Shown here piece after piece: positions 1-17,686 of a stretch of 34,274 bases of DNA. The notes under the pieces are model-generated. The model did no database searches, had not been told where the DNA came from, and saw nothing but the letters and a program-made list of their open reading frames with translations. Source of the stretch: a virus (Duplodnaviria; Heunggongvirae; Uroviricota; Caudoviricetes); the IMG/VR virus record IMGVR_UViG_2913167280_000006, positions 1-34,274 of that record; one strand, 5' to 3'. Positions within the stretch are counted from its first letter, which is position 1. Each line of letters opens with the position of its first letter. The position numbers and the translations under genes are program-made.

Positions 1-1254
1 ATGCTGGAACAAATGGGCATTGCCGCGAAGCAAGCCTCGTATAAATTAGCGCAACTCTCCAGCCGCGAAAAAAATCGCGTGCTGGAAAAAATCGCCGATG
101 AACTGGAAGCACAAAGCGAAATCATCCTCAACGCTAACGCCCAGGATGTTGCTGACGCGCGTGCTAATGGCCTCAGCGAAGCGATGCTTGACCGTCTGGC
201 ACTGACGCCCGCACGGCTGAAAGGCATTGCCGATGATGTGCGCCAGGTGTGTAACCTCGCCGATCCGGTGGGGCAGGTAGTCGATGGCGGCGTGCTGGAC
301 AGCGGCCTGCGTCTGGAGCGTCGTCGCGTGCCGCTGGGGGTGATTGGCGTGATTTATGAAGCGCGCCCGAACGTGACGGTCGATGTTGCTTCGCTATGCC
401 TGAAAACGGGTAACGCGGTGATCCTGCGTGGCGGCAAAGAAACCTGTCGCACTAACGCTGCAACGGTGGCGGTGATTCAGGACGCCCTGAAATCCTGCGG
501 TTTACCGGCAGGTGCAGTACAGGCAATTGATAATCCTGACCGCGCGTTGGTCAGTGAAATGCTGCGTATGGATAAATACATCGACATGCTGATCCCGCGC
601 GGCGGCGCTGGTCTGCATAAGCTATGCCGCGAACAGTCGACAATCCCGGTGATCACAGGCGGTATAGGCGTATGCCATATTTACGTTGATGAAAGTGCAG
701 AGATCGCTGAAGCCCTGAAAGTGATCGTCAACGCGAAAACTCAGCGTCCGAGCACATGTAATACGGTAGAAACGTTGCTGGTGAATAAAAACATCGCCGA
801 TAGCTTCCTGCCCGCATTAAGCAAACAAATGGCGGAAAGCAGCGTGACATTACACGCAGATGCTGCCGCAATGGCACAGTTGCAGCCAGGCCCTGCGAAG
901 GTGGTTGCTGTTAAAGCCGAAGAGTATGACGATGAATTTCTGTCATTAGATTTGAACGTCAAAATCGTCAGCGATCTGGACGACGCCATTGCCCATATTC
1001 GTGAACACGGCACACAACACTCCGATGCGATCCTGACCCGCGATATGCGCAACGCCCAGCGTTTTGTTAACGAAGTGGATTCCTCCGCTGTTTACGTTAA
1101 CGCCTCTACGCGTTTTACCGACGGCGGCCAGTTTGGTCTGGGCGCGGAAGTGGCTGTAAGCACGCAAAAACTGCACGCACGCGGCCCAATGGGGCTGGAA
1201 GCACTGACCACCTACAAGTGGATCGGCATTGGTGATTACACCATTCGTGCGTAA
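1..1254 (+). CDS. proA: Gamma-glutamyl phosphate reductase (proline biosynthesis)
   Basis: Full 417-aa ORF beginning [13 protein letters not shown], recognised as enterobacterial ProA; the window begins exactly at the ATG. Confidence 0.93.
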
Positions 1255-1368
1255 ATAAAACCGGGTGATGCAAAAGTAGCCATTTGATTCACAAGGCCAT
1301 TGACGCATCGCCCGGTTAGTTTTAACCTTGTCCACCGTGATTCACGTTCGTGAACATGTCCTTTCAGG

Positions 1369-1444
1369 GCCGATATAGCTCAGTTGGTAGAGCAGCGCAT
1401 TCGTAATGCGAAGGTCGTAGGTTCGACTCCTATTATCGGCACCA
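1369..1444 (+). tRNA. thrW: tRNA-Thr (anticodon CGU)
   Basis: GCCGATATAGCTCAGTTGGTAGAGC...GGTTCGACTCCTATTATCGGCACCA seen directly: 7-bp acceptor stem, D-loop, anticodon loop with CGT, T-loop GGTTCGACTCC, encoded CCA. The integrase gene lies immediately downstream. Confidence 0.9.
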
Positions 1445-1458
1445 TTTAAATCAATAAG

Positions 1459-2622
1459 TTACACATCATTAGTACCTTCCTTATTTTTTGACTGGGACAA
1501 ATTTGGGACCGATGGGTTCAGGATCGAGTCTATTTGCCGTGCGTGTTCGGTAAGGTGATTAGGTGCAAGGTGAGCATATCGACGAACCATTTCGATAGAC
1601 TCCCAGCCTCCCATTTCCTGTAACACTGACAACGGGACTCCGGCTTGAACCAGCCAACTTGCCCAGGTGTGTCTCAAGTCGTGAAATCTGAAATCATCAA
1701 TACCAGCCCGTCTCAGCGCCGCTTTCCAGGCTGTGTTTGCGTCATACCGCATCTTCCTTACTGTTGGCGCTTTCGTTCCGTCTGGTTTGGTACAGCTTTC
1801 CTTGTACACAAATACCCAACGGTGATGATTCCCGATTTGTTTTTTCAATACGCGACATGCAGTATCATTCAGCGCAACGCCAATTGCGCGGTTTGATTTA
1901 CTCTCTTCCGGGTTTATCCATGCCACCCGGCGCTGCATATCTATTTGTTGCCATTCAAGGTTGATGATGTTCGAGCGTCTTAAGCCTGTTGCCAGTGCAA
2001 ATTCAACAACAGACTTTAATGGCTCCGGACATTCATCAATCAGCCTTTGTGCTTCATGGGGCTCCAGCCAGCGGATCCGTTTATTCTTTGGTTGAGGCAC
2101 TTTAATAATTGGTGCCTTATCCAGCATTTTCCATTCACGCTCTGCGGCTCTTAGTAGGGCCTTTATAAATGAAAGATGCGTAGCCTTCGTTGCAACGGAC
2201 GCTGGTTTTGGCGTGTATTCTGGAACAGGTTTCCCTTTTTTTCTGCACGCTTCTGCCCTGAGTTTCCAGTTTTCCTCATGACGCCGGTTCGTCATTTTCT
2301 GCATTGCTGAATAAATTTTTGATTCAGTAATGTCTCTTAGTTGCATTCCTGCGAAATGTTGAAGCCAGAATCCGATCCGGCTTTTGTCATCGTCCAGTGA
2401 TTTTTTATGTGCTTTCTCTTCAAGCCACCTGACACACGCTTCCTCGAACGTTATATCAGGTATTTCACCAAGTTTGCTGACCCGCCATGCTTCAGCCTTT
2501 AGCTTGTCATGGAGTTCTGTCGCCTGCCTTTTGTCCTTTGTTCCAAGAGACTGTTTAAATCTTTTACCGTTCGGCAATGTGAAACTGGCGTACCATATTT
2601 CACTTCTGCGGAAGAGTGACAT
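1459..2622 (-). CDS. int: Tyrosine-type site-specific integrase (P22 Int-like, thrW-specific)
   Basis: 387-aa ORF with the C-terminal catalytic region ...[40 protein letters not shown] (R..HxxR..Y); adjacent to tRNA-Thr, the known P22 attachment locus. Confidence 0.9.
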
Positions 2623-2840
2623 TTTCTTTCCTCTGTTATGCCATCACCCGCGCTCACCTTGATAGTATGCAGCGGAGACTGAAGCGCCGCAATGCAGGCT
2701 TGTCGCGTTGTGAGGTAAGGAGATTTTGGTTTAGTGGGGTCTTTGCGTGTTGCCTGTAGGCGGCCTGTTCGTATCCAGTTGGTAGCGGTAGGTCTGGATA
2801 TCTTGAGAAACTGACAGGCCTCATCGAGTGTGAGGCTGTG
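2499..2840 (-). CDS. xis: Excisionase-like HTH protein; no ATG/GTG/TTG start near the 5' end of its frame
   Basis: Hand translation of the minus strand gives ...[73 protein letters not shown]..., overlapping the int start in another frame. The frame is open from 2903 down to 2499; the only canonical start is a late GTG. Confidence 0.5.
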
Positions 2841-2841
2841 G

Positions 2842-3186
2842 TTAGTACTGGCGTAGCTCGCTAATTCTTCTGTAAGTTTCTGGTGCTTTGTTTCCGTGTA
2901 TCTTCATTTCAGACTTCAACAGAGCAACGAGAGAATCCCATTCGTTGAGGATGCCTTTGAATGCCGGAACGCGCTTTGCAACCTTGTCGAATGAATCTCT
3001 GATTTCTGGAATCTGCTCAACAAGTGCAACGCATCGTCGGAAATCGGCTGCGTCATGTGGAGCACCGAAGTGATGACCATAGATATTCTTTTTCAGTCCA
3101 CATGCGATTGAGGCAAGAGTTGCGCTACTGATGCCGACATCGCCAGTCGTTTGCCATTTCAAAATCTTCATAGCCAAATCTGACAT
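2842..3186 (-). CDS. Hypothetical protein
   Basis: ORF track 2842..3213; the internal Met (MSDLAMKILKW...) follows a GGAGA ribosome-binding site and avoids overlap with the upstream terminator hairpin. Confidence 0.45.
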   Translation of the reverse strand: MSDLAMKILKWQTTGDVGISSATLASIACGLKKNIYGHHFGAPHDAADFRRCVALVEQIPEIRDSFDKVAKRVPAFKGILNEWDSLVALLKSEMKIHGNKAPETYRRISELRQY

Positions 3187-3200
3187 TTCTTGTCTCCAAT

Positions 3201-3222
3201 AAAAAACCGCCATCAGGCGGCT
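3201..3222 (-). terminator. Putative intrinsic terminator
   Basis: Hairpin CCGCC-ATCA-GGCGG followed on the minus strand by a T-run (A6 on plus), just downstream of the 3251..3565 gene. Confidence 0.4.
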
Positions 3223-3250
3223 TGGTGTTCTTTCAGTTCTTAAATTCGAA

Positions 3251-3565
3251 TCAGCCTTTGGTCACCCAGCATTGTGAGTCACCATTACACGGGCATGAAT
3301 TAACAGGAACTCTCTCGCCGCACTTACCGCAACGTTTTATGCTGATCGATTTTATACGCCAGCGCACAAGTGCATCATCCTGGCGGCTCAGTAACGCGAT
3401 GTACTCACCAAACTCGTAAGGCGCACGCCTGAAGCGACGCGTGGCACAGTTACGCTCCAGCATTTCAATTTCCTGAGCATCAAGTACAAGCTCCAGCTTA
3501 CGCATACCGGATGATGCTTGCTTGGCTCTCTGATCGGCTTTGCGCTCTGCTGCTGATTTAGCCAT
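3251..3565 (-). CDS. Hypothetical protein with a C-terminal Cys cluster (CGKCG...CPCNGDSQC), possible zinc ribbon
   Basis: 104-aa ORF preceded by a ribosome-binding site; basic N-terminus, Cys-rich C-terminus. Confidence 0.5.
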   Translation of the reverse strand: MAKSAAERKADQRAKQASSGMRKLELVLDAQEIEMLERNCATRRFRRAPYEFGEYIALLSRQDDALVRWRIKSISIKRCGKCGERVPVNSCPCNGDSQCWVTKG

Positions 3566-3725
3566 TCTGCTTTTCCTGCATCAGGAGAAAGACAATCATA
3601 GCGGCGCGGATGCTTCCGATATCTCTTTATGCGATAAGCACATACAAGCAGCGAACCATCAACTGGAGTGAGTGAGGAATCGACCACAAGCAACGCCCCT
3701 TGCAATATGCCTTCGCGGTAATGGC

Positions 3726-3816
3726 TGTCACCCGCGGAACAATTTATCTGCTGGCTGCATGAAAAGCCAGCAATACAACTTTTGCTGACTTTCCACCGTT
3801 AACGCGACACAACCTT
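3726..3816. repeat. Left arm of an inverted repeat flanking the 3902..4603 gene; carries a 34-bp insertion absent from the right arm
   Basis: TGTCACCCGCGGAACAATTTATCTGCTG...ACTTTCCACCGTTAACGCGACACAACCTT is the reverse complement (2-3 mismatches) of 4770..4827. Confidence 0.8.
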
Positions 3817-3901
3817 TGTTCCTGAGCTTCACGTTGCAGAGCCGATAATCTCCGTCTCTTTAAATTAAAAAGACGGAGACTATTAAAAACTCATTAAAAC
3901 A

Positions 3902-4603
3902 TCAGGAAACAACAGATTCCCCGTAAAACGCTACAGCCTGTGCAGACTGGGAGTCCATATCATCATGGAGATCTCTGGAGTATGGGAGGGAGTTGACTGT
4001 CGATATAAATATACTGTCATTTTCTAAAGTGAAAATTTCTGATTCGAGACTACCAATATCACCACGTACAGGATTAGTCCACCCACTAAACAGTAAAAAT
4101 CCCCATTCCTGAAAAAGCCCGGAATTCACTTCACGTTTTACATCATGAAACATTTCTCCCGTCAGTTCATCGAAAGGGACATTATTGATATCGCGTCGTG
4201 CCGGGACAGTCCCTTTTTTATCCTCAATCCAAAACAATGCATCGTAAAATCTGTCCGACGTTGCGGTACGAGGTTTAAAGAAGCGATAAGGTTTAATTAA
4301 ATAAGATGACACATTTTTCCCTGTGGCTTTATCCTTCGCAAAAATAACAAATGTTTTACCAATGCAACTTTCATCAATATCATTTGAAAATGACACCACG
4401 CCGTCCTGATTTACAGTCAGCGAATTGTCTCCCGCATTGGTGACAACACTCCAGTCCAACGTATTATTATTGACAACATCATTGTCAACCACCATCTGAA
4501 ATGTCGCGCCTGGAAATAATGTTTTCGGGAATGAACCATTAGCCATGTCTTTTTTTATATCGAACACATGGTGGCTCACTAGAACACCGGTAATTTTGGG
4601 CAT
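3902..4603 (-). CDS. Hypothetical protein, paralog A of an AT-rich two-member family in this prophage
   Basis: 233-aa ORF (MPKITGVLVSHHVFDIKKDM...LFPGATFQMVVDND...QEWG...AQAVAFYGES); AAGGAG ribosome-binding site upstream; AT-rich; shares motifs with the ORF at 16042..16719. Confidence 0.7.
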   Translation of the reverse strand: MPKITGVLVSHHVFDIKKDMANGSFPKTLFPGATFQMVVDNDVVNNNTLDWSVVTNAGDNSLTVNQDGVVSFSNDIDESCIGKTFVIFAKDKATGKNVSSYLIKPYRFFKPRTATSDRFYDALFWIEDKKGTVPARRDINNVPFDELTGEMFHDVKREVNSGLFQEWGFLLFSGWTNPVRGDIGSLESEIFTLENDSIFISTVNSLPYSRDLHDDMDSQSAQAVAFYGESVVS

Positions 4604-4769
4604 AAAAAACTCCTTATTTGTTTAATTGAAATGCGATCAATAAATTCGATCACCAAAGAGATATTATTACTTTTACAAGAATAAATGTTGTTATTTGTTT
4701 ATTATAAAACAATCATCACCCAGAAAAGAAAAAGATGCAGCTCGTTAACAAAAACCTTTGTGGCATATT

Positions 4770-4827
4770 AAGGTTGTGTCGCGTTAACGGTGGAAAGTCA
4801 GCAGATAAAATTGTTCTGTGGGTGACA
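4770..4827. repeat. Right arm of the inverted repeat flanking the 3902..4603 gene
   Basis: AAGGTTGTGTCGCGTTAACGGTGGAAAGT CAGCAGATAAAATTGTTCTGTGGGTGACA, reverse complement of the left arm. Confidence 0.8.
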
Positions 4828-5026
4828 ATCCATCACCCTGAGGATGCTGATATTGCCCCTTGCGCATCATGTGGATTAATTCAACGCCGGCCAGTATCGT
4901 AGCCGTTCCATGAAATAGGTGTGCAAGTTCTCCGGTTGCTCACGGGCTACCTGTTCTGCAATTACCGGTATATTCATCCGCTCTTTGTAGGCAACGCCGC
5001 TGGCGGCTAGGTCAACGTTGAAGTGG

Positions 5027-5455
5027 TCAACCAAAACTGGCCACCGAGTTAGAGTTTTTCCAGTTGTCGCGTATATCAGATGCAAGCGACTGTTCGGATT
5101 TTGAGTTACATTTCTGTGCAAACATCTCCAATCCCTGCGCCCGGACTTCAGCCAAGAAAGCGTCGGTGGCTGGGGGTTCGCTGTGGTGCAGGGCATCATT
5201 GATAATCATCGCAGCTACTCCGGCCTGTCCTGCGTCCGTGACCGACACATGCTCAAGAGTTACGGCCATTGCGTTTTTCAGCCCAGCATTCTCCTCCGCC
5301 AGCGCCGCGCATTTAGCTTCAAGTTCACCGAACTTACGCACCAGATATTCAGCGTTTGTTTCGTTAACCTTTAAATCTCGTGGGATGCATTTACCTTTCA
5401 GAAATCCATCTATCTCAATTAGTGACATTTGTTTCATTTCTTCCCACTCCGCCAC
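5027..5455 (-). CDS. Hypothetical early-region protein
   Basis: 142-aa ORF ([21 protein letters not shown]...), start overlapping the stop of the upstream small ORF; an overlapping downstream ORF (4876..5199) may be a frameshifted continuation or a separate small gene. Confidence 0.45.
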
Positions 5456-5598
5456 ATCGCATTCAGATATTTGTTTTGACTCACTGAAGGAAAAGAATTT
5501 CGCTTAAGCAATTCCTCTCTCGATGGCATTGGCTTTACGCGTTGGCGAATAATCATTTCTGCCGGAAGAATGCCGGGATTGTATGCAAGTCCTCTCAT
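5434..5598 (-). CDS. Small hypothetical protein (about 54 aa)
   Basis: Internal Met of ORF 5434..5748 ([15 protein letters not shown]...) preceded by GAGG, 10 nt after the stop of 5609..5902. Confidence 0.3.
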
Positions 5599-5608
5599 GG
5601 TAAATTCC

Positions 5609-5902
5609 TCAGTCATTACTGATAGCGCCATAGCGTGAGCGGTAATTACGCAGGCGCGGGTCAATTTCAGGGAAGTGGGTATATGTGGCTTTGCGGAATG
5701 GTCGGATTGATGTCTGGTAAATTCGCTCGCGTTCTTCTTTCTCTGCAAGCCATATACAATGGCGAAATTCCTTTTCCTCTTTCGTTTCCTGCGGTAGCGA
5801 CATTATCAGGTCGTAGTTTTTTCTGAATTTATCCAGCACCTCCAATACGGAATTGCCGGAACAGCGGCGCGCGTCGTCCGCACCATACAGAGGCGCTGGC
5901 AT
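5609..5902 (-). CDS. Hypothetical protein
   Basis: 97-aa ORF with an AGGAG ribosome-binding site, immediately downstream of ssb. Confidence 0.5.
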
Positions 5903-5915
5903 GGTTTTCTCCTGA

Positions 5916-6422
5916 TTAAATTGCGTGAATAGCGTGACGAGGGAAGGGGAGAGTTACTGGTGCAAAGGGTATATCGTCGTCAAAATCCATCGGAGGTTCG
6001 TTGTGTTGTGCTGGGGATGATTGCTGCTGTGGCTTCTGTGATTGCCTGCTGGCTGCTTGTTGTTTGCTGTCGCCAATGCCGCCAAGCATTTGCATCACGC
6101 CATTAATTCCGACATGAACCTCGGTTGTGTAACGGTCTTGCCCTGACTGGTCTTTCCACTTTCTGGTTCTCAGCATTCCCTCGAAATAAATCTGATCACC
6201 TTTTTTCACATACTGCCCCACGACCTCAGCCAGTTTCCCGGATACAGCAACACGATGCCATTCAGTCAATTCCTTTTGCTCGCCAGTATTTTTATCTCGC
6301 CATTGTTCTGACGTGGCTATTGTCAGGTTAGCGAACGCTGTTCCTGATGGTGAGTATCGAACTTCCGGGTCTTGTCCTACCCGACCAAGGATAATCACCT
6401 TATTTATCCCGCGAGAACTCAT
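5916..6422 (-). CDS. ssb: Single-stranded DNA-binding protein, with a 15-aa extension after the usual C-terminal DDDIPF
   Basis: [23 protein letters not shown]...TEWHRV...[17 protein letters not shown]...[11 protein letters not shown] matches the SSB OB-fold and acidic tail, but the reading frame continues [15 protein letters not shown] before the stop. Confidence 0.8.
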
Positions 6423-6886
6423 TTGCTCCACCTCTTGCCAGTTTTTATGTTGCTTATAATTGATTGAGATACACCCATGTCTTTTGCTATCTTGTACTGA
6501 CTCTCTTTTTCAGAGAGTCTTTTCCTAATTTCTATAACCTGCCACTCTGTTAATTTTGCACCATGATGAGCATGACCTTTTTTGGCTCCACGATGCCTTC
6601 CTTTTGCTATCTTGTCGTCCATGTTTTCTTGCGCGCTACCTAAAAAGAGATGTTCAGGATTAACGCAGCATGGGTTATCGCATTTGTGGCAAACCATCTT
6701 CCCAGATGGGATGGGGGAGTGATAAAGCTCAAAAGCAACCCGATGAGAAAGCATTGTTACGCCAAAGGCTACAAATTTTGTGTATCCTCCTTTGTTTTTT
6801 GAATAGGTAGACTCCCAGCAACCTGTTGTTTCATTAACTTTGTAGCTGGACTCGAATCTTTTAATAATTCCGTCCAAGTGAGACAT
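6419..6886 (-). CDS. HNH homing-type endonuclease with a C-terminal HTH-like region
   Basis: HRVAFELYH...[18 protein letters not shown] motif; AT-rich; start abuts the annealing-protein frame and stop overlaps the ssb start. Confidence 0.75.
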
Positions 6887-6993
6887 TTATGCCGCCTGTT
6901 TTAGTTCATTAACTCTGATGTTCATTACCTGAACGCATTTAGCCTGCGCATCCTCATTGCCAGCCATTAATTGCCAGTCATGCTGATAACGTT

Positions 6994-7593
6994 CTATGAG
7001 TTTTTCTTGTCAGTTTCTGTCGATGCATAATCGCTGAAGTCTTTCAGGATTTGTTCGCAGTCAACCGATGGAGATTTCTGGTTGGTATTTTCTGGTGATG
7101 GTTGATTGCCAGATGCTGGCATTGCCCATCCCGGCAGCGATGGAGGGGACCAGTAAAATCCTGTTCCATCCTTCAGTTTTGCCCTGTGCCATCCCTGCTT
7201 TTTATCGAGAGATGTTTGTGCGAAACCTTCCTCAAGGTTATACAGATACCGACCGATTCCCCACTGAACGGCAGCACGCTTCATTGCACCGGAACGACCA
7301 CCTTTGACGGCTTCTACCTGCGTGTTTTCAGCAGCATCCCATTTGGTTACCCATTCGGAATCAATCTTGATTGATATGCCGCATTCAACGCCGCCGTTGT
7401 TGGGAATATCGCGGTATTCATTGCGCCATCCCGCTTTGCCACAAACATCGTCAAGGCGTTTCATGATTGCCCGGTTCGTGACATAAGCCAGCACCATAGC
7501 CCACACTTTGCCATCGCGTGTTTTACCGCTTTGCTGTATTCGCCATTCGATATCTTCAGGGCTGAATGGCTCATCGAATTTATTCAAATCCAT
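6994..7593 (-). CDS. Single-strand annealing recombinase (Rad52/Sak-like core, GIGRYLY motif), apparently frameshifted near the 3' end
   Basis: 199-aa ORF; after its stop, a different frame reads ...KLIERYQHDWQLMAGNEDAQAKCVQVMNIRVNELKQAA to a TAA abutting the HNH start, resembling an Erf-type C-terminal tail. Confidence 0.6.
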   Translation of the reverse strand: MDLNKFDEPFSPEDIEWRIQQSGKTRDGKVWAMVLAYVTNRAIMKRLDDVCGKAGWRNEYRDIPNNGGVECGISIKIDSEWVTKWDAAENTQVEAVKGGRSGAMKRAAVQWGIGRYLYNLEEGFAQTSLDKKQGWHRAKLKDGTGFYWSPPSLPGWAMPASGNQPSPENTNQKSPSVDCEQILKDFSDYASTETDKKNS

Positions 7594-7695
7594 AATTCAC
7601 CTCAGAATGGACATGGCCCAAGGAAATAACGCTGGTTTAATACTTCGACTCTGGACAAATTAAGGCATACCCGCATTCCTTCGCGGTCACCATTA

Positions 7696-7851
7696 TGGCG
7701 ATACCAGAGAGCTTTCTGCGTGTACATGCGCCTCTGTAACTTGCTCTCCTTCACTGTGGTTGCAAGTGACATGAATATCTCCTTCGTTACCGATTAATTC
7801 TTTCATCTGACGAATGAATTCTTCGTCTGACCAGTTATCTGTAAAACTCAT
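7696..7851 (-). CDS. Small acidic hypothetical protein (51 aa)
   Basis: ATG overlapping the kil stop (ATGA); MSFTDNWSDEEFIRQMKELIG...; an alternative overlapping frame also exists. Confidence 0.3.
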
Positions 7852-8000
7852 TTCCTGCGATGCCACGGAAGGTTGATAGCTGATTTCATCGCTTTATTTG
7901 CTTCAAGCCACATTTTTGAATCACCAATAAATCGGGCTATTACTGCTTTGTTTTGTGCTGCACGAAGCATCTGGTGATTGATGGCTATTTCATTGCGCAT
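7848..8000 (-). CDS. kil: Kil-like host division inhibitor
   Basis: 50-aa ORF MRNEIAINHQMLRAAQNKAVIARFIGDSKMWLEA..., resembling lambda Kil and lying next to the cIII-like gene; below the ORF-track length cut-off. Confidence 0.45.
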   Translation of the reverse strand: MRNEIAINHQMLRAAQNKAVIARFIGDSKMWLEANKAMKSAINLPWHRRK

Positions 8001-8119
8001 AACGCCTCCAGTTGTTTCTTTGCTGCTCTGATTAATTGTTTAACTCGGCGTGATAATTCAGATTCGTGCGGGTAGAAAGCGGACATGACGCCGCTACCCG
8101 CGAGCTGAAAGTGCATCAT
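7985..8119 (-). CDS. cIII: cIII-like small protein (FtsH/HflB inhibitor family)
   Basis: 44-aa ORF MMHFQLAGSGVMSAFYPHESELSRRVKQLIRAAKKQLEAL..., with an amphipathic helix like lambda CIII; position between N and kil. Confidence 0.45.
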   Translation of the reverse strand: MMHFQLAGSGVMSAFYPHESELSRRVKQLIRAAKKQLEALCAMK

Positions 8120-8202
8120 GGGTAACTCCTTCTGTTTGATTGCATAACGAAAACGCCTCGAGTGAAGCGTTATTGGTATGCGGTAAAGCCGCGCTTGGCG
8201 GC

Positions 8203-8619
8203 TTATTTGAAAACTTCTATGAAATCAAGAACTGATGATATTTCGTGGTTGAATGATTTTCTTTTATATCTTTCTATCGCAGAATCTACCTGGTGTTTAT
8301 AGTCATCGTCGTTGGAGTATTTAACGAAGCATTCTATTGTCTCAGGCGTTACAGCTATAATGCTCCACCAACCTTCATCAGATTGATATTCAAATCCCAT
8401 GCTTTCAAGCCATTCAGCATATTTCCCTCCAGCATCTTGCCAGTGTGTCTTTTCTGCAAGGAAGCTGTTAACCGTCATATGTGCATCAAGGCATTTATCC
8501 AATTGTTTACCATTAAGTAGCCATGCGCTGACAGTTGCACATCCCAAATCAACCGATTTAGTAGAGATGTTGAATTGGTCGTAATTATCTGGATTAACCA
8601 GAATATCTGTAATTTTCAT
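8203..8619 (-). CDS. Hypothetical protein (138 aa from the internal Met)
   Basis: ORF track 8203..8673; the start MKITDILVNPD follows a GGAGA ribosome-binding site, and the longer N-terminus would span a terminator hairpin. Confidence 0.5.
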   Translation of the reverse strand: MKITDILVNPDNYDQFNISTKSVDLGCATVSAWLLNGKQLDKCLDAHMTVNSFLAEKTHWQDAGGKYAEWLESMGFEYQSDEGWWSIIAVTPETIECFVKYSNDDDYKHQVDSAIERYKRKSFNHEISSVLDFIEVFK

Positions 8620-8631
8620 AATTTCTCCGTC

Positions 8632-8658
8632 AAAAAAATCGCCCTCACACTGGAGGGC
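8632..8658 (-). terminator. Intrinsic terminator within the leftward early operon
   Basis: GCCCTC-ACACTG-GAGGGC hairpin followed on the minus strand by T7. Confidence 0.45.
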
Positions 8659-8710
8659 AAAGAAGATTTCCAATAATCAGAACAAGTCGGCTCCTGTTTA
8701 GTTACGAGCG

Positions 8711-8758
8711 ACATTGCTCCGTGTATTCACTCGTTGGAATGAATACACGGAGCAGTGT
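8711..8758. other. Long near-perfect hairpin (15-bp perfect stem, extendable to about 19 bp, 10-nt loop)
   Basis: TGCTCCGTGTATTCA-ctcgttggaa-TGAATACACGGAGCA, intergenic between 8787..9029 and 8203..8619. Confidence 0.7.
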
Positions 8759-8786
8759 TTATTCTGTTGTTTATGCCAAAATAATT

Positions 8787-9029
8787 TTAATCAGAAATAA
8801 ACTCTTCTGGTAATTCATCAACCAGTTGATGCATTATTATCACCCATTTGCCATCATTCGTTTCGTATGCATATTTCCGGTCTTTTATCATCAGGTGTTC
8901 AGTTACTGCCTTAATCGCTTGTTCGGTGACATCTTCTTTCTTTCCTACCCACATTCCTTTTTCAGTGTTTAATGTTCCTTGAAAAATATGACCGCTTAAT
9001 GGGCTTGCTGCCATAGTTTTAATTTTCAT
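8787..9029 (-). CDS. Hypothetical protein
   Basis: 80-aa ORF in the early-left operon. Confidence 0.45.
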   Translation of the reverse strand: MKIKTMAASPLSGHIFQGTLNTEKGMWVGKKEDVTEQAIKAVTEHLMIKDRKYAYETNDGKWVIIMHQLVDELPEEFISD

Positions 9030-9056
9030 ATAGATCCTTAAAAATAAAGGCCACCA

Positions 9057-9308
9057 TCAGGCAGCCTTGTTGTAAATGTTGCTGGTATCAAGTAAGTAAT
9101 TAGATGGAGCGCCATAAATTATGAATTCATCGTTTGTTGGGTCCATCTCCATCTCTTGGCCTATTGCCATTCTTGCGTCAGTGTCGTCAGAGGCGAAGCA
9201 TAAAACAGCCCACGCACCCATTGTTTTAAAAAGAACTGCAATTGGCTGTGGTTTTACTGAATTTGCGTTAGCGCGAAAATCATAAATAGCACTTTCATGA
9301 AATTCCAT
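9057..9308 (-). CDS. Hypothetical protein
   Basis: 83-aa ORF in the early-left operon. Confidence 0.45.
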   Translation of the reverse strand: MEFHESAIYDFRANANSVKPQPIAVLFKTMGAWAVLCFASDDTDARMAIGQEMEMDPTNDEFIIYGAPSNYLLDTSNIYNKAA

Positions 9309-9362
9309 ATATCACCTCAAATATGTGGTTTGCCGCGAAAATAAATCCGCTTAAGTTATCTG

Positions 9363-9500
9363 TTATTTATCCCACCAAGTTCCGTATCTATCTATCCAGT
9401 TACACCAATCATCGACACTCCATTTTGTTGTGTCGCATTTTGGCAATTGGCATGAATATCTACCTTCTTTGTAAAGTCGGCGTTTGATTTTCTTGAGCAT
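9363..9500 (-). CDS. Small Cys/Trp-rich hypothetical protein (45 aa)
   Basis: MLKKIKRRLYKEGRYSCQLPKCDTTKWSVDDWCNWIDRYGTWWDK; GAGGTGG ribosome-binding site; lies directly downstream of N. Confidence 0.3.
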   Translation of the reverse strand: MLKKIKRRLYKEGRYSCQLPKCDTTKWSVDDWCNWIDRYGTWWDK

Positions 9501-9507
9501 GACCACC

Positions 9508-9840
9508 TCAATCGTAATAAGCTGGAATTGATTTTCCGCGTTGCTTCTGGCGGCCTGAACAGGTCACACCCATTTCACTGCGTGGCTTGCTGTACCATGT
9601 GCGCTGATTCTTGCGCTCAATACGTTGCAGGTTGCTTTCAATCTGTTCGTGGTATTCAGCCAGCACCGTAAGGTCTATCGGATTCAGTGCGCTTTCTACT
9701 CGTGATTTCGGTTTGCGATTCAGCGAGAGAATAGGGCGGTTAACTGGTTTTGCGCTTACCCCAACCAACAGGGGATTTGCTGCTTTCCATTGAGCCTGTT
9801 TCTCTGCGCGACGTTCGCGGCGGCGTGTTTGTGCATCCAT
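9508..9840 (-). CDS. N: Antitermination protein N (lambda type)
   Basis: From the internal Met: MDAQTRRRERRAEKQAQWKAANPLLVGVSAKPVNRPILSLNRKPKSRVESALNPIDLTVLAEYHEQIESNLQRIERKNQRTWYSKP..., near-identical to lambda N as I recall it; nutL lies just upstream. Confidence 0.85.
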   Translation of the reverse strand: MDAQTRRRERRAEKQAQWKAANPLLVGVSAKPVNRPILSLNRKPKSRVESALNPIDLTVLAEYHEQIESNLQRIERKNQRTWYSKPRSEMGVTCSGRQKQRGKSIPAYYD

Positions 9841-9997
9841 CTGGATTCTCCTGTCAGTTAGCTTTGGTTGTGTGTGGGAGTCGTAGTCCTGAACGAAAAC
9901 ACCCCGCAATGGCACATTGGCAGCTAATCCGGATTCGCACTTCCGGCCAATGCTTCGTTTCGTATCACACACACCAAAGCCTTCTGCTTTGAATGCT

Positions 9998-10030
9998 GCC
10001 CTTCTTCAGGGCTTAATTTTTAAGAGCATC
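9998..10030 (-). promoter_or_regulatory. nutL (boxA plus boxB)
   Basis: Minus strand reads GATGCTCTTAAAAATTAAGCCCTGAAGAAGGGCAGCA: boxB hairpin GCCCTGAAGAAGGGC with a boxA-like CTCTTAA. Confidence 0.8.
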
Positions 10031-10039
10031 ACCTTCATG

Positions 10040-10151
10040 GTGGTTAGTGCGTCCTGCTGATGGATTAAAATATACCTACAGGTAAAACTGCTGTCTATAC
10101 CTGTAGGTAAATAAAATTGATGTGAGAGTTTACCTGCTTGAATTTTCAGGT
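10040..10151 (-). promoter_or_regulatory. Leftward early promoter (PL-like) with operators
   Basis: Palindromes TACCTACAGGTA (10073..10084) and TACCTGTAGGTA (10098..10109), plus TACCTG-n10-CAGGTA (10130..10151); candidate -35 TAGACA and -10 TATATT on the minus strand. Confidence 0.55.
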
Positions 10152-10171
10152 AATTAATTTTTTGGATTGAT

Positions 10172-10195
10172 ATAAAAAAGCCCGCTTTGCGGGCT
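10172..10195 (-). terminator. Intrinsic terminator ending the cI operon
   Basis: AGCCCGC-TTT-GCGGGCT hairpin followed on the minus strand by T6. Confidence 0.55.
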
Positions 10196-10206
10196 GAAAG
10201 GAGATG

Positions 10207-10521
10207 TCAGAAGCTATTTGGATTGCTTGGCCATTGCGGCAATTTTGATTCTACTGGGGTGTGTTTGGGTTTGAGTCCGTTTAAGTAGTCAAGGCGCTCA
10301 ATGGCGCATTTATACATAGCAATCTGCTCTGATGACATGTCGTCGTATGACATGCCTTTGAACTTTTTAATTATCGATTCTGCCTCATGTATAAGATGCT
10401 TCTTCCTCATGAGTTCAGCTGTATGCTTAGAGCTTACAGGAGATAACTTTGCCCATATGAAGCAGATGATTACAACAGCGACTACTATGCCGGGTATAAA
10501 CATTTGCTGCTTTATCCTCAA
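10207..10521 (-). CDS. Small membrane protein cotranscribed with cI (rex/sieB position); candidate superinfection-exclusion protein
   Basis: 104-aa ORF whose ATG overlaps the cI stop (ATGA); hydrophobic segment FIPGIVVAVVIICFIWAKL; terminator downstream. Confidence 0.55.
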   Translation of the reverse strand: MRIKQQMFIPGIVVAVVIICFIWAKLSPVSSKHTAELMRKKHLIHEAESIIKKFKGMSYDDMSSEQIAMYKCAIERLDYLNGLKPKHTPVESKLPQWPSNPNSF

Positions 10522-11204
10522 ACTTTTGGCAGATCGTCCTGGTCTACGTACCTGGTGTGTTTCACAATAGCTGAAACAAAATGCATTTTATCAACTTCTT
10601 CAACAGGAAGAGTGATTGGGCGGTGATCACTGTTTATGCTACTAAACTGATAATCACCGTCTCTTGTTTTGTTCATGATCTTTATCATGTTGTGACCGTC
10701 TTTGGTCCTTACAAAGACTTCATCACCTGGATGTACTGGCGTATTTGGTTCAATAACAACATATTCTCCTGACTGAATCCTTGGCCACATGCTGTCACCC
10801 TTAACCTTCAGACCGTAAGCATCTTTATCGCCGCTGTAGATGCTTAACCAACCGGATCTGAATTCAATCATATCCACTGAGCCATCAACTCCCAAAACGG
10901 CTTCACCAATTACCGGAACAAAACCCGCACGAACGTTACCCGCAAACTCAAGATGGTCTGTAGCTCCAGCTTTACCATCTACAAGCATGTCCATCCATCC
11001 GCGTGGGAGATTAAAAGATTTTTCAATTAGTTCCATCATATCGTCAGCAATGCGTTTTTTTCCGCTTTTTCCTTCCGGATACAGCATTCTGGAAACGTAT
11101 GATGGTTCCCTTTCTATTCGACGAGCCAACTCTGAGGCCTTTCCATTACAGAATCGGTCTCTTATCTCTATCAGCCTTAGTCGTCTTTGTTCGTATTTAT
11201 CCAT
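10518..11204 (-). CDS. cI: CI-type prophage repressor (N-terminal HTH, C-terminal S24 LexA-like autopeptidase)
   Basis: 228-aa ORF with the GDSMWP serine motif and a later Lys; divergent from cro across an operator region. Confidence 0.85.
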   Translation of the reverse strand: MDKYEQRRLRLIEIRDRFCNGKASELARRIEREPSYVSRMLYPEGKSGKKRIADDMMELIEKSFNLPRGWMDMLVDGKAGATDHLEFAGNVRAGFVPVIGEAVLGVDGSVDMIEFRSGWLSIYSGDKDAYGLKVKGDSMWPRIQSGEYVVIEPNTPVHPGDEVFVRTKDGHNMIKIMNKTRDGDYQFSSINSDHRPITLPVEEVDKMHFVSAIVKHTRYVDQDDLPKV

Positions 11205-14318: not shown

Positions 14319-14391
14319 CCATCTACATCACTGAGCTAATAACAGGTCTGCTGGTAATCGCAGGCCTTTTTATTTGGGGGAGAGGGAAGTC

Positions 14392-14880
14392 ATGAAAAAG
14401 CTAACCTTTGAAATTCGATCTCCAGCACATCAGCAAAACGCTATTCACGCAGTACAGCAAATCCTTCCAGACCCAACCAAACCAATCGTAGTAACCATTC
14501 AGGAACGCAACCGCAGCTTAGACCGGAATCGAAAGCTTTGGGCTTGCCTTGGTGACGTCTCTCGTCAGGTTGAATGGCATGGTCGCTGGCTGGATGCAGA
14601 AAGCTGGAAGTGCGTTTTTACAGCAGCATTAAAGCAGCAGGACGTTGCTGAGGTAACAGGCGCAACAGTAACCAGCATAAATCAGGCTGCGGCTAAAATG
14701 GCGCGGGCAGGAATTTTAGTCATTGATGGTAAGGTCTGGCGAACGGTGTATTACCGGTTCGCTACCAGGGAAGAACGGGAAGGAAAGGTGAGCACGAATC
14801 TGATTTTCAAGGAGTGTCGCCAGAGTGCCGCGATGAAGCGGGTTTTATTTGTTTATGCGGCGGGGGGAGGAAATCAGTGA
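14392..14880 (+). CDS. ninB: NinB-like protein with a divergent C-terminal half
   Basis: MKKLTFEIRSPAHQQNAIHAVQQILPDPTKPIVVTIQERNRSLDRNRKLWACLGDVSRQVEWHGRWLDAESWKCVFTAALKQQDV matches lambda NinB as I recall it; the remaining 70-odd residues do not. Confidence 0.55.
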   Translation: MKKLTFEIRSPAHQQNAIHAVQQILPDPTKPIVVTIQERNRSLDRNRKLWACLGDVSRQVEWHGRWLDAESWKCVFTAALKQQDVAEVTGATVTSINQAAAKMARAGILVIDGKVWRTVYYRFATREEREGKVSTNLIFKECRQSAAMKRVLFVYAAGGGNQ

Positions 14881-14975
14881 GGTTGACGATAACTAATATC
14901 TGGCGCTATATTCTGTGCGTTGCCGCAAAATCGGCACACGGGATTGGCGTCCCGGATAAGGTAATCGCGACTACT

Positions 14976-15000
14976 ACACGCCGCGAGCGTGTTTTTTATT
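14976..15000 (+). terminator. Intrinsic terminator
   Basis: ACACGC-CGCGA-GCGTGT hairpin followed by TTTTTTATT. Confidence 0.5.
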
Positions 15001-15155
15001 GTCGTAAGCATACGCACATCTGAATTATGGTGGGGCGTGTAGGGCCGACTTCGGTCGGGCCGGTTGATTACCCCGGTTACGCCAACCCTACATGTCTCAC
15101 CACCAAACTGATTGGCGTCAGCGGTGGTGGTTAACTTGATTTATAGGTAATCATC

Positions 15156-15761
15156 ATGAGCACACAACTAGTCTTTCATCAAACAAAATTCCATCCTGTT
15201 AAACACAACAACAGTATCTGGCTTACTGCCGTTGAGATTGCTCAAGCTCTCGGATATAAAAAATCTGATGCCGTAACTCAGATCTACGATCGAAATTCCG
15301 ATGAATTTAGGGCAGATATGACTGAGACCCTCAATTTGAGTGTCTCAGGGAACTACCAGAAAACAATACGCATTTTCTCCCTCCGTGGTGCCCATTTGAT
15401 CGCTATGTTCGCCCGCACTCCTGTAGCCAAAGAATTCCGCCGCTGGGTTCTGGATATTCTCGATCGAGAAGTTCAACAATCCCCAATCACAAAACAATTC
15501 ACTGATAACGAACTTTGCACACTCGCCTGGTTATGGCGAGCAGGGGATGTGATGTTAACCGCCTGCCAGAATGTTACTCCACTTCTTCAGGTTGCGGAGC
15601 ATCGCGAAGCCGGTCGCTTTACTTCTATTGAGCAAGAATATCCCCAGATACTACATAAGGCGCGCGAAATCCTTGCCAGAGAAACGGCACATGTAAGATT
15701 CCAGCCGTGGCAGGATGATAAGTGGAGCCGAGTATTGCCGCATTTGCGTTCTGAGCAGTAG
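15156..15761 (+). CDS. Bro-N domain protein (antirepressor-like)
   Basis: 201-aa ORF; the N-terminal 100 aa fit the Bro-N pattern (...IRIFSLRGAHLIAMFARTPVAKEFRRWVLDILDREV). Confidence 0.55.
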   Translation: MSTQLVFHQTKFHPVKHNNSIWLTAVEIAQALGYKKSDAVTQIYDRNSDEFRADMTETLNLSVSGNYQKTIRIFSLRGAHLIAMFARTPVAKEFRRWVLDILDREVQQSPITKQFTDNELCTLAWLWRAGDVMLTACQNVTPLLQVAEHREAGRFTSIEQEYPQILHKAREILARETAHVRFQPWQDDKWSRVLPHLRSEQ

Positions 15762-15944
15762 CAATAAAGTTTCCGGTGAGAAATGTCACCAGCATTTTGT
15801 TATGAAACGGGTATTGGCGGTATATGGGGGCGGGGCTTTAGTTATTAGGTGTCGAGAATTAATTGTTTGTAGCAATATAAAAAGGAGCGCTTAAGTCCGT
15901 TTATTTTTTTTAAGCTTCATATACATAGTGGATAAAAATGAGAA

Positions 15945-15968
15945 CCACCCGCTGAACGGGTGGTTTTG
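15945..15968. terminator. Bidirectional intrinsic terminator
   Basis: CCACCCG-CTGAA-CGGGTGG hairpin with TTTTG on plus and a T-rich tract on minus. Confidence 0.5.
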
Positions 15969-16041
15969 CGCAAGTTAAATTTTATAATTTCAGTGAATCT
16001 TTACGCTGTAATAATGCAAATGATAGTTGAAAAAAACACAA

Positions 16042-16719
16042 TCAGTCGATGGATTCTCCGTAGGATGCAACTGCCTGAGCGACGCAAAAACGATCAATAC
16101 ACTCTATTTCTCCATAATCACGCAGGCAATAATAAGTATTATTGTCTTTATCAAAAGCGTAAATGCTACAAATACCCTCAAGCTCACAACTTGCGTCCCA
16201 TCCACTATTAGATAACGTGCCCCATTCCTGGTAAAGCCCTGCGTTAACTTCTCGATTGATAATATGCGGTCCACTATAGTTATCATAATCGTAACTATAG
16301 ATGTCACGTGCCTCAGGAAAATTCCCGTTCATGTTTTCAATCCACGGTAAAATATCTTTAACTGAGTTATAAAGTTCAATGCTGTATTTGAAAAAACGCT
16401 TCACAATAAAAACATAGATGCCGGCAGATTTGTTTGTTGATTTATCAGTGGCGAAAATGACAAAAATCTTCCCAACGCACTTTTCATCTACCCCCGGAAA
16501 AGTTACTGTGCCATCCTGGCTAACCGCCAGAACATTATTGTCTGCATTAGTGCTACAGGTCCATTTTACCTTGTCATTATTAATAGGGTCATTATCAATG
16601 ACCATCTTGAAGGTTGCTCCTGGGAACAAACTGTTAGGGAAACAGTAACCACTCTCCATATCATTTTTAATATCATAGATATGGCTATCAACTAACACGC
16701 CTGTAATTTTGCTCATCAT
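16042..16719 (-). CDS. Hypothetical protein, paralog B of the AT-rich family
   Basis: ORF track 16042..16764; the start at MMSKITGVLVDSHIYDIKNDM matches the paralog A N-terminus, with shared LFPGATF, QEWG and AQAVASYGES motifs. Confidence 0.7.
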   Translation of the reverse strand: MMSKITGVLVDSHIYDIKNDMESGYCFPNSLFPGATFKMVIDNDPINNDKVKWTCSTNADNNVLAVSQDGTVTFPGVDEKCVGKIFVIFATDKSTNKSAGIYVFIVKRFFKYSIELYNSVKDILPWIENMNGNFPEARDIYSYDYDNYSGPHIINREVNAGLYQEWGTLSNSGWDASCELEGICSIYAFDKDNNTYYCLRDYGEIECIDRFCVAQAVASYGESID

Positions 16720-17230
16720 TGAACTCTCTTTGTTTGTTAAATAAAAAGTTTTATTCCTGAACAACGGAACACGCTGATATTAATGCAACCAATGAATTGT
16801 TGTTGTTATTTGGAGGTTATATAGTGGTATGAATGTTATTATGCGATGTCTCTGAGTGATGGGGTAAGGATTATATGATTCGCTTTTGAGATTTACCTAT
16901 GTCAGGCGTTGCTGTTCATGTTCGTCCCCGTTGTCAGTCTTCTTAGTCTGAGCTAATGTGATCATCAATGGGTTATCAGTTTTCTCTGAAGTTATATAAT
17001 TAATTGAGCGCCATAGCACCATGGGGCATTGTTGAATTTCATCTTCAATTGATTTTCCATAATCAACTCGCCATAATCATGTCATCGGAGCCTGAACACC
17101 TCCGGTGACTTCTGCGCTAAACGGGGACGTTTATGCGCACACACAATCCAAACTCTCTTCTCCCTTCACAGATGCAGAAATGCACCTGCGATTTTTTGCA
17201 TCCAACGTTTGACCTCTGCGGAGGTGAAGC

Positions 17231-17686
17231 GTGAACCTCCCACAAGACGGCATCAAATTGCATCGCGGTAACTTCACCGCTATCGGTCAGCAGATCCAGC
17301 CTTATCTGGAGGATGGAAAATGCTTTCGCATGGTGCTTAAACCGTGGCGGGAGAGACGCAGTCTTTCCCAGAATGCACTCAGCCACATGTGGTACAGCGA
17401 AATCAGTGAATACCTCATCAGCAGGGGGAAATCGTTCGCTACCGCAGCATGGGTAAAAGATGCTCTCAAACACACATACCTCGGTTATGAAACCAAGGAC
17501 CTGGTTGATGTCGTAACCGGCGAAATCACTACGATCCAGTCGTTACGCCATACCTCCGATCTTGATACCGGAGAGATGTATGTCTTCCTGTGTAAGGTTG
17601 AAGCCTGGGCGATGAATATTGGCTGCCACCTGACTATTCCGCAGAGCTGCGAGTTCCAGCTGCTGCGCGACAAGCAGGAGGCGTAA
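17231..17686 (+). CDS. ybcN: NinB/YbcN-family protein
   Basis: 151-aa ORF with [17 protein letters not shown]; recognised as the DLP12 YbcN type; followed by ninE. Confidence 0.7.

Follow-up and report, generated by a model that had tools for sequence, protein, structure and literature searches.

Why would one prophage keep two diverged copies of the same gene at two separate places, and what might their products do? We consider this question for a virus of the Caudoviricetes (Duplodnaviria; Heunggongvirae; Uroviricota), recorded in IMG/VR as IMGVR_UViG_2913167280_000006. Positions 1 to 34,274 of that record, the whole 34,274-nucleotide stretch that was analysed, are called the window below. 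It represents a lambdoid prophage whose integration site is tRNA-Thr(CGT), beside proA; positions 1-10603 match contig RHJM01000018.1 of an unclassified Escherichia (GCA_004212315.1) with 100% identity. The two genes, which we call X_A and X_B, are both on the minus strand, X_A in the same direction as the early-left operon and X_B opposed to the early-right operon:

3902..4603, minus strand: X_A, 233 residues, with the same two-domain fold as X_B and an unrelated tip (BLASTP; Pfam Invasin_D4)
16042..16719, minus strand: X_B, a leaderless invasin-tip protein of 225 residues (D4 about 1-112; D5, C-type-lectin-like, 113-225; tip 175-213)

The original prediction, made by reading the sequence, was that these two open reading frames (ORFs) are paralogs with roughly 35-40% identity by eye. 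BLASTP bears out the paralogy (E=5e-54) and all of the quoted motifs are found; the identity had been set too low, and is 44% over 240 columns. That two diverged copies lie at separate variable cargo positions of a single lambdoid prophage also holds. The family itself had been described as unknown, which it no longer is in structural terms: it corresponds to the D4-D5 tip of invasin and intimin.

Invasin-type tip proteins and their missing export features

The X family is a stand-alone form of the receptor-binding tip called D4-D5 in invasin and D2-D3 in intimin, consisting of an immunoglobulin-like (Ig-like) domain and a C-type-lectin-like domain. Pfam matches Invasin_D4 at the N-terminus of X_A (35.4 bits, above the gathering threshold of 27) and, below threshold, at that of X_B. 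From the family alignment (A1), AlphaFold2 gives an X_B model with a predicted local distance difference test (pLDDT) score of 89.9 and a predicted template-modelling (pTM) score of 0.88; the X_A model has a pLDDT of 83.9 and the same order of secondary-structure elements. When the X_B model is compared with the PDB using Foldseek, invasin (1CWV) is matched over all 225 columns with E=4.5e-12, a template-modelling (TM) score of 0.72 and a deviation of 2.9 A. Intimin (1F00) is found with E=2.5e-6, and the next match is cadherin-11 EC1-2 with E=7.1e-4. A profile of the family together with adhesin tips matches 1CWV with E=3e-33, in an alignment that spans D4 and D5.

A profile search of 1.84 billion representative proteins returned 57 with E<=1e-3. 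Many of the matches outside the family are the C-termini of large proteins, and those that were scanned carry IAT_beta, Big_1, Invasin_D3 and Invasin_D4. The closest relatives outside the family (E ~1e-22) are two giant proteins with tandem D4-D5 modules, P0027 from Thorsellia anophelis (3122 residues) and P0028 from a sequencing-run assembly (2119 residues), with 4 to 13 tandem D4-D5 matches. The IAT beta-barrel was not detected by Pfam in either of these, and P0027 weakly resembles Reo_sigmaC. The idea that the family descends recently from a known adhesin was considered and rejected, because the closest inverse-autotransporter tips reach only E ~1e-9 to 1e-10. On the viral side, a fold search of BFVD matched the Ig domain alone, and no viral protein corresponded to the two domains together (TM score 0.29 or lower). 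No description of stand-alone or leaderless invasin-like phage proteins was found in the literature. The family entries listed are all labelled 'hypothetical', except for one UniRef 'Invasin domain-containing protein'. The original prediction was to count as refuted if the family proved homologous to an ordinary, well-characterised phage protein; the homologs are bacterial adhesin tips instead.

The family has the C-terminal superdomain of the adhesins, Ig-like plus C-type-lectin-like, and begins directly with it: the N-terminus of X_B, MMSKITGVLVD, is the first D4 strand, in which MSKITGVLV aligns with LTGILV of invasin. X_B has no signal peptide or membrane segment (maximum hydropathy 1.08 over 19 residues, and 1.4 over 9 residues within the first 30). 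Pfam gives Invasin_D4 alone for X_A and X_B, with no beta-barrel (PF11924), LysM domain or Big_1/Invasin_D3 stalk. The disulfide C907-C982 of invasin is lost as well: C907 aligns with Ile127, next to a Trp that is kept, and another residue stands in place of the C-terminal Cys (AVAS/FYGES). In alignment A3, both of these cysteines are retained by the exported tips that fit the family consensus. Two further leaderless stand-alone proteins are also without them; one, from Citrobacter amalonaticus, adjoins an IS3-type transposase, and the other, from a sequencing-run contig, adjoins an emrE-like gene.

Differences from invasin extend to the residues used in receptor binding. Asp911 of invasin is essential for integrin binding. 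It aligns with Asn131, a position that holds Asn, Lys, Gly or His across the family, and this pairing depends on the alignment. The region of Asp811, the synergy residue in D4, is a gapped and non-conserved stretch of the alignment, and the distal lectin sheet of the family has ~20 residues more than that of invasin.

We infer a cytoplasmic location for the X proteins, mainly because the export signal and the disulfide were lost together. A constant partner or exporter gene is found in none of the six kinds of genomic context described below; since no gene accompanies X in all of them, X most likely acts alone.

Selection and the variable tip

The ratio of nonsynonymous to synonymous substitution (dN/dS) was calculated from 11 coding sequences by the pairwise Nei-Gojobori method. 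The regions are given in residues of X_B, with the entropy of the alignment and the identity between the A and B copies:

1-112, D4: dN/dS 0.09-0.29; entropy 0.77 bits; A versus B 56%
113-174, D5 core: dN/dS 0.13-1.05; entropy 1.16 bits; A versus B 42%
175-213, tip: dN/dS 0.5-2.1 with several pairs >1, from 39 codons that are hard to align; entropy 2.00 bits; A versus B 8%
214-225, last strand: entropy 0.69 bits; A versus B 75%

Between the chromosomally fixed orthologs at loci L002 and L009, all regions are constrained, with a dN/dS of 0.22 throughout, the tip included. The purifying selection on D4 and the constraint on these fixed orthologs argue that the genes are functional, with a conserved scaffold and what appears to be a rapidly diversifying surface in the distal lectin domain. 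Invasin and intimin contact their receptors through the lectin domain, which is also where the variable surface of X lies. The X_A and X_B lineages are old (dS is saturated), yet both genes are intact. Broken copies make up 3 of the 11 examined: L004 has W166stop, L007 a frameshift and L008 a truncation.

Two expectations of the original prediction can be set against these values. Selection for the function agrees with the low dN/dS of D4, and the idea of 'different specificities' is reasonable, given that the divergence is concentrated in one surface region (8% identity in the tip as against 56% in D4). As for the source of the variation, blastn of the tips against the window found no template repeat of a diversity-generating retroelement (DGR) for X_A or X_B, and of the ORFs examined, which were not scanned systematically for this purpose, none was seen to encode a reverse transcriptase.

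Cassettes, carriers and neighbouring genes

Each of the two genes forms an autonomous AT-rich cassette in which the coding sequence is preceded by a conserved 5' region and a Shine-Dalgarno sequence and followed by a hairpin terminator. The parts of the X_B cassette are as follows:

15806..17045, minus strand: the X_B cargo cassette (terminator, coding sequence and AT-rich 5' region), missing from the collinear prophage of E. coli 118UI
15943-15965, minus strand: intrinsic terminator of X_B, a 10-pair stem (6 of the pairs GC) that leads into a T-run
16720..16860, minus strand: 5' region of ~140 nucleotides, common to all family members including the A-type (alignments A2 and A5)

Homology to E. 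coli 118UI (L018) ends at 15805 and restarts at 17046, with 96% identity in the right flank. The GC content is 35-39% across 15850-17050, compared with 50-55% in the flanks. Window positions 15904-17106 are 79% identical to a non-phage chromosomal islet between yedF and fliE (L011), and positions 15720-16857 are 82% identical to a DLP12 remnant in E. ruysiae. In 5,426 complete E. coli genomes, blastn with the cassette matched the flanks only. X_B has several features of a moron, namely its own terminator, atypical GC content, presence or absence between collinear phages and recurrence in non-phage contexts. The insertion runs opposite to the early-right operon and separates ant from ybcN, within the cargo region that extends from ren to ybcN.

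The 140-nucleotide 5' region contains invariant TATAA-type and AAATAAC blocks, and probably holds the promoter and the 5' untranslated region. The AT-rich DNA had been described as non-coding; the AT-richness stands, and the part in question, 16720-17106, is better described as the upstream region that travels with X_B. Two other candidates for this stretch were rejected. A structured RNA in the conserved leader is represented only by a predicted 6-pair hairpin with negligible covariation, and a 41-residue ORF at 16897-17022 appears, by eye, to be unconserved in the flagellar islet (alignment A2).

X_A lies at the distal end of the early-left (pL) operon, has a strong Shine-Dalgarno sequence (AAGGAG), and sits between the remnants of two insertion sequence (IS) ends:

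3717..3814, plus strand: left remnant, the right end of an IS6-family (ISEas1-like) element with its terminus towards X_A (blastn, 80% over ~90 nucleotides)
3815..4771, minus strand: passenger segment of 957 bp between the IS6 ends, containing the 5' region, X_A and the hairpin
3845..3883, minus strand: hairpin 3' of X_A, a probable terminator (inverted repeat I3, 19-nucleotide arms, 89% complementary, 1-nucleotide loop)
4772..4850, minus strand: right remnant, the same IS6-family end, inverted; its innermost 34 nucleotides equal the left arm (alignment A6)

The blastn matches of the left remnant are exclusively plasmid-borne IS6-family elements, and the matched part runs from the last ~38 nucleotides of the transposase coding sequence to the end of the IS. 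The two remnants form a perfect 34-nucleotide inverted repeat (3783-3816 and 4770-4803; zero expected by chance), which is kept around X_A in 8 loci; relative to E. whittamii, the right arm has a 34-nucleotide internal deletion. What is left of the IS copies is two inverted right-end remnants of ~100 nucleotides, 80% identical to the ISEas1 type, with no transposase gene remaining. Because X_A is flanked by the inward-facing, 3'-terminal ~100 nucleotides of IS6-family elements, it appears to have arrived as the 957-bp passenger of a composite element of IS6 type, which later lost parts of its IS copies. An invertible switch acting through the 34-nucleotide repeat was rejected: the orientation is the same in 8 of 8 loci, and the arms are IS6-family ends. 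No invertase gene was noticed among the ORFs examined, and Rfam gave no match around X_A.

An identical X_A protein is found in at least six prophages with different integrases and attachment sites. The local gene order is constant, with a theta-like gene, X_A, orf104, orf114, xis where present, and int. The theta-like gene, a homolog of DNA polymerase III theta (HolE) at window positions 4876-5199, is always immediately upstream of X_A. The block from theta to orf114 is 98-99.7% identical across six prophages (L021-L026) that differ in their recombination genes. On the other side, a remnant of an umuD/humD-like S24 peptidase gene ('DNA repair protein', 3566-3716) abuts the left IS6 remnant; the ORF at 3388-3705 overlaps it, and the same fragment is annotated as a partial pseudogene in E. 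coli relatives.

Clustered at 90% identity, the family as a whole yields 24 clusters among 5.8 billion proteins, and every one is from Escherichia. Only 3 of 185,579 species representatives carry it: Escherichia sp. E1V33 with four copies, E. whittamii with three and E. ruysiae with one. A-type alleles are also present in E. marmotae and a few E. coli. The original prediction regarded two copies in one genome as unusual, whereas multiple copies are usual in the cryptic Escherichia clades, as E1V33 and E. whittamii illustrate. A tblastn search of 50,697 phage genomes found no match to X_A or X_B.

The X_B type occurs in several kinds of place. The position between ant and ybcN is shared by the window, E1V33 and one prophage of E. 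coli. At the E. ruysiae-type argU/DLP12 site the order is cusS-nfrBA-ybcH-[X]-emrE-argU-folD, and X and emrE are the sole remains of the prophage, a survival that also speaks for a functional gene; the protein is listed in 73 index blocks, and the 24 contigs read from among these share the context. The E. ruysiae-type gene is at 8001-8678 of L009 (loci L009, L010 and L002), and the E. whittamii copy with W166stop is at the same site. Another X_B-type gene is in the chromosomal islet of the flagellar region (L011), where a neighbouring 225-residue ORF was considered as a second paralog and proved unrelated by tblastn. An E. coli island has an X_B-type gene among TacAT, HipBA, Fic/Phd, omptin and adhesin genes (inverse autotransporter and autotransporter). 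Finally, an X_B-type gene is found on a small Rop-type plasmid of ~6.5 kb (L014-L016) in Escherichia sp. E2562 and other samples. The homolog on this ColE1-like plasmid is preceded by an 81-residue ORF and adjoins an operon that encodes a 731-residue protein with weak GH19 (lysozyme/chitinase-like) similarity, a DUF4087 protein and two small ORFs; the operon may be a bacteriocin-like module.

Within the ren-to-ybcN region of E. coli 118UI, a DUF4041/SNIPE gene separates ren from the ant module. Its product is a proven defence protein against phages, a membrane-anchored GIY-YIG nuclease (bioRxiv 10.1101/2025.11.03.685801). X_B thus occupies a recurrent hotspot for defence or cargo genes, and the copy among TacAT, HipBA and Fic/Phd has similar company. 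An 89-nucleotide sequence located just 5' of ylcH/ybcN (window 17113-17201) is repeated in 118UI with 95.5% identity (L018 3807-3895 and ~5740-5830), the repeat being upstream of c4-ant and adjoining the SNIPE insertion. This repeat could serve as a boundary sequence for the exchange of cassettes in the ren-ybcN slot.

The remaining features of the region around X_B are listed in order:

14374..14880, plus strand: chimeric ORF of 168 residues with the N-terminus of NinB and the C-terminus of Ren (Pfam NinB at residues 9-112; PHROG 72 at 5-106; PHROG 142, Ren-like, at 88-163)
14883-14912, plus strand: promoter-like site (promoter scan)
14906-14958, plus strand: C4 a1/b1 target sites, overlapped by isrK (RF03163, 41.9 bits, below the gathering threshold of 46.7)
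14921-14997, plus strand: isrK small RNA (Rfam RF01394, 61.2 bits, gathering threshold 50)
14976-14992, plus strand: isrK terminator (terminator scan)
15023..15107, plus strand: C4-type antisense RNA (RF01695, 74.2 bits, gathering threshold 45, E=4.9e-14, full length 1-87)
15027-15134, plus strand: leader ORF of 35 residues that overlaps the C4 RNA (ORF call)
15156..15761, plus strand: antirepressor-like protein with Bro-N and P22AR_C (Pfam 1.9e-13 and 1.7e-15; PHROG 245 'anti-repressor Ant', 4e-52)
15773-15792, both strands: bidirectional terminator (terminator scan)
17133-17234, plus strand: ylcH-like small ORF of 33 residues that overlaps the start of ybcN (the same ORF is annotated 5' of ybcN in E. 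coli relatives)
17231-17686, plus strand: ybcN, DLP12-type, NinB family, the right edge (NF007281, 277.5 bits, 1-151/151; PHROG 72, 5e-52)

Homology to E. coli DLP12-type sequence ('protein ren') begins at 14637, inside the ORF at 14374-14880. Judged from these matches, that ORF is the recombination joint at the left edge of an incoming DLP12-type block from ren to ybcN. The in-frame NinB::Ren joint itself, near 14637-14700, marks a mosaic junction between two types of lambdoid phage, and leaves the prophage with a truncated NinB and, 2.4 kb downstream, the complete NinB-family ybcN. The island had been placed as starting where the NinB match ends, and its start thus moves to within this ORF. 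Other elements of the original description agree with the searches: Pfam detects Bro-N in the product of 15156-15761, ybcN at the far end is matched over the full length of its family, and the terminator scan found 6 compared with 2.0 expected, the strong ones being those at 15943-15965, 14976-14992 and 15773-15792. Rfam shows the interval 14881-15155 to be occupied by isrK, the C4 antisense RNA and the C4 target sites.

The Bro-N gene had been counted as part of the novelty and belongs instead to a known isrK/C4-antirepressor module. The isrK-orf45-anrP module of Gifsy-1 has the same layout (PMC4825925). The likeness between 14883-15761 and P1 immI (c4-icd-ant) or the Gifsy-1 module includes isrK, the C4 RNA, a short leader ORF and the Bro-N/P22AR_C gene in the same order; it is limited to this module, and no link to X_A or X_B was detected. 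The antirepressor module, its RNAs and the NinB::Ren joint are ordinary.

Possible roles and relation to known systems

For the function of the X proteins we put forward, as quite possible though short of probable, that they are cytoplasmic binders specified by their tips and used in conflict among phages and mobile elements. The protein would remain in the cytoplasm and act through binding, with no catalysis. The Ig domain and the lectin core would form the conserved scaffold, and the distal lectin surface (~175-213) would determine specificity; the wholly different tips of X_A and X_B would then give one prophage two specificities. In the lysogen, X could bind a protein brought in by an infecting phage or another mobile element and thereby act in exclusion or defence. 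For X_A, which is in the pL operon, the role might be counter-defence instead, with the host defence as its target. A part in conflict is suggested by the presence of SNIPE in the same region, the association with toxin-antitoxin genes, plasmids and IS elements, the diversifying surface, and the frequent gain and loss of the genes. It is the least certain and most speculative step of the scheme, one in which we infer function.

Several observations weigh against this proposal. PHROG, NCBIfam and PADLOC (the last with E up to 0.1) give no match to X_A or X_B, and neither homology nor experiment links them to a defence, exclusion or anti-defence family. The original suggestion of exclusion or defence finds support in the context of the cargo region and none in direct evidence. 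The tip of X_B contains five cysteines (C178, C184, C198, C207 and C212; window 16081-16188), which would be unusual in the cytoplasm; C184 alone is nearly invariant across the family, and the whole of X_A contains a single cysteine. The missing Sec signal is compatible with release by lysis or by an unrecognised route. The high dN/dS values of the tip depend on the few, poorly alignable codons mentioned above, and the promoter scan found no strong sigma-70 consensus upstream of either gene. The family is very rare and often decays, and selection for it is therefore conditional. A broader version of the proposal, in which leaderless adhesin-tip proteins are a new class of single-gene, non-enzymatic specificity modules on prophages, plasmids and IS cassettes (loosely antibody-like intracellular binders that would block or sense proteins of competitors, with paralogs stacked for coverage), is in our opinion doubtful.

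Other explanations lead in different directions. X could be a host-interaction factor that is released by phage lysis or exported in an unrecognised way and binds a eukaryotic or bacterial receptor, as a colonisation or virulence factor of lysogenic conversion. The fold is that of two well-studied binders of host receptors, the hypervariable tip parallels the allelic variation of adhesins, the tip of X_B has its cysteines, and one of the contexts is among adhesin genes (inverse autotransporter, autotransporter and omptin). We nevertheless find it unlikely, because the proteins have no signal peptide or membrane segment, both canonical disulfide cysteines that exported tips keep are lost, Asp911 aligns with Asn, Lys, Gly or His, and no context links an exporter gene; moreover, X_B opposes the lytic operon and ends at a terminator of its own, which uncouples it from lysis. 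Another possibility is an early-lytic role in host takeover or counter-defence: while the phage develops, X would neutralise a host protein (for example a sensor for defence or a factor in the biogenesis of surface proteins), and the lysogen would not be protected. Such a role suits a protein that only binds, and X_A does run in the direction of the pL operon, always placed, in at least six prophages, between a theta-like gene and the xis/int end, near Abc2, Kil, CIII and Ral-type genes. X_B, however, is antisense to pR, and B-type genes are kept where there is no phage (the E. ruysiae DLP12 remnant, the flagellar islet, the plasmid and the genomic island), which implies a benefit to the cell; taking X_A and X_B together, we rate this role as decidedly unlikely.

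Two further possibilities concern the virion and decay. An accessory virion protein, that is, a decoration or auxiliary receptor-binding protein held non-covalently on the capsid or tail, is brought to mind by the resemblance of the Ig domain alone to the Big_2 decoration and tail domains of many phages. It seems far-fetched given that no viral structure matches the two domains together (TM 0.29 or lower), tblastn of the 50,697 phage genomes gives nothing, the X genes are in early regions with one of them antisense, and intact copies exist on a 6.5-kb plasmid and on chromosomes without virion genes. Alternatively, the genes may be functionless relics, captured fragments of adhesin genes that hitch-hike on mobile DNA while decaying, and the 3 broken copies of 11 (L004, L007 and L008) together with the great rarity of the family are what one would then expect. 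The constraint on D4 (dN/dS 0.09-0.29) and on the fixed orthologs speaks against this, as do the identical domain boundary at which all members start, the conserved start, Shine-Dalgarno sequence and 140-nucleotide 5' region, and the persistence of two old lineages (dS saturated) in intact form; we regard decay as very unlikely.

Cytoplasmic, tip-specific binding in conflict among mobile elements, the role that we put forward, can be placed beside several known systems. Invasin of Yersinia pseudotuberculosis (1CWV) is an outer-membrane protein of 986 residues with a signal peptide, a beta-barrel and a D1-D3 stalk, whereas X is the tip alone. X has lost C907-C982, has Asn131 aligned with Asp911 and an insertion of ~20 residues, and is carried on phage, plasmid and IS cassettes. 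The D2-D3 tip of intimin (1F00/1F02) has ~10-12% sequence identity to X; intimin is exported by the type Ve route and binds translocated Tir, whereas the locus of enterocyte effacement, Tir, the barrel and the signal are not associated with X genes. X shows the fold of known adhesins in a form not described before, leaderless, stand-alone and disulfide-free, and in a setting likewise undescribed, as cargo of prophages, plasmids and IS elements.

The C-type-lectin variable proteins of DGRs, such as Mtd of Bordetella phage and TvpA of Treponema, also combine a lectin scaffold with a hypervariable ligand surface, and are phage-borne like X. X, however, varies from allele to allele and from paralog to paralog, with no generation of diversity in situ, and Mtd is the tip of a tail fibre whereas X genes are cargo of early regions. 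In genomic terms, the nearest parallels are the other cargo genes of the DLP12-type ren-ybcN interval, emrE in the DLP12 of K-12 and SNIPE in 118UI. They share the interval of X_B, the organisation as antisense or autonomous units, the atypical GC content and the pattern of presence and absence. The proteins themselves are unrelated to X: SNIPE is a membrane-anchored nuclease and EmrE a transporter, whereas X has no catalytic or membrane domain.

For the family, the result provides a structural annotation where most entries are labelled 'hypothetical', in Escherichia marmotae, E. ruysiae, E. whittamii and related clades. The tips of invasin and intimin are textbook extracellular binders, and a lineage that does without export would show that the same scaffold has been re-used inside the bacterial cell. 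If the role in conflict is true, a binding-only, enzyme-free specificity module would be added to the known repertoire, and the two paralogs, with their swappable tips, would be a simple system in which to test it.

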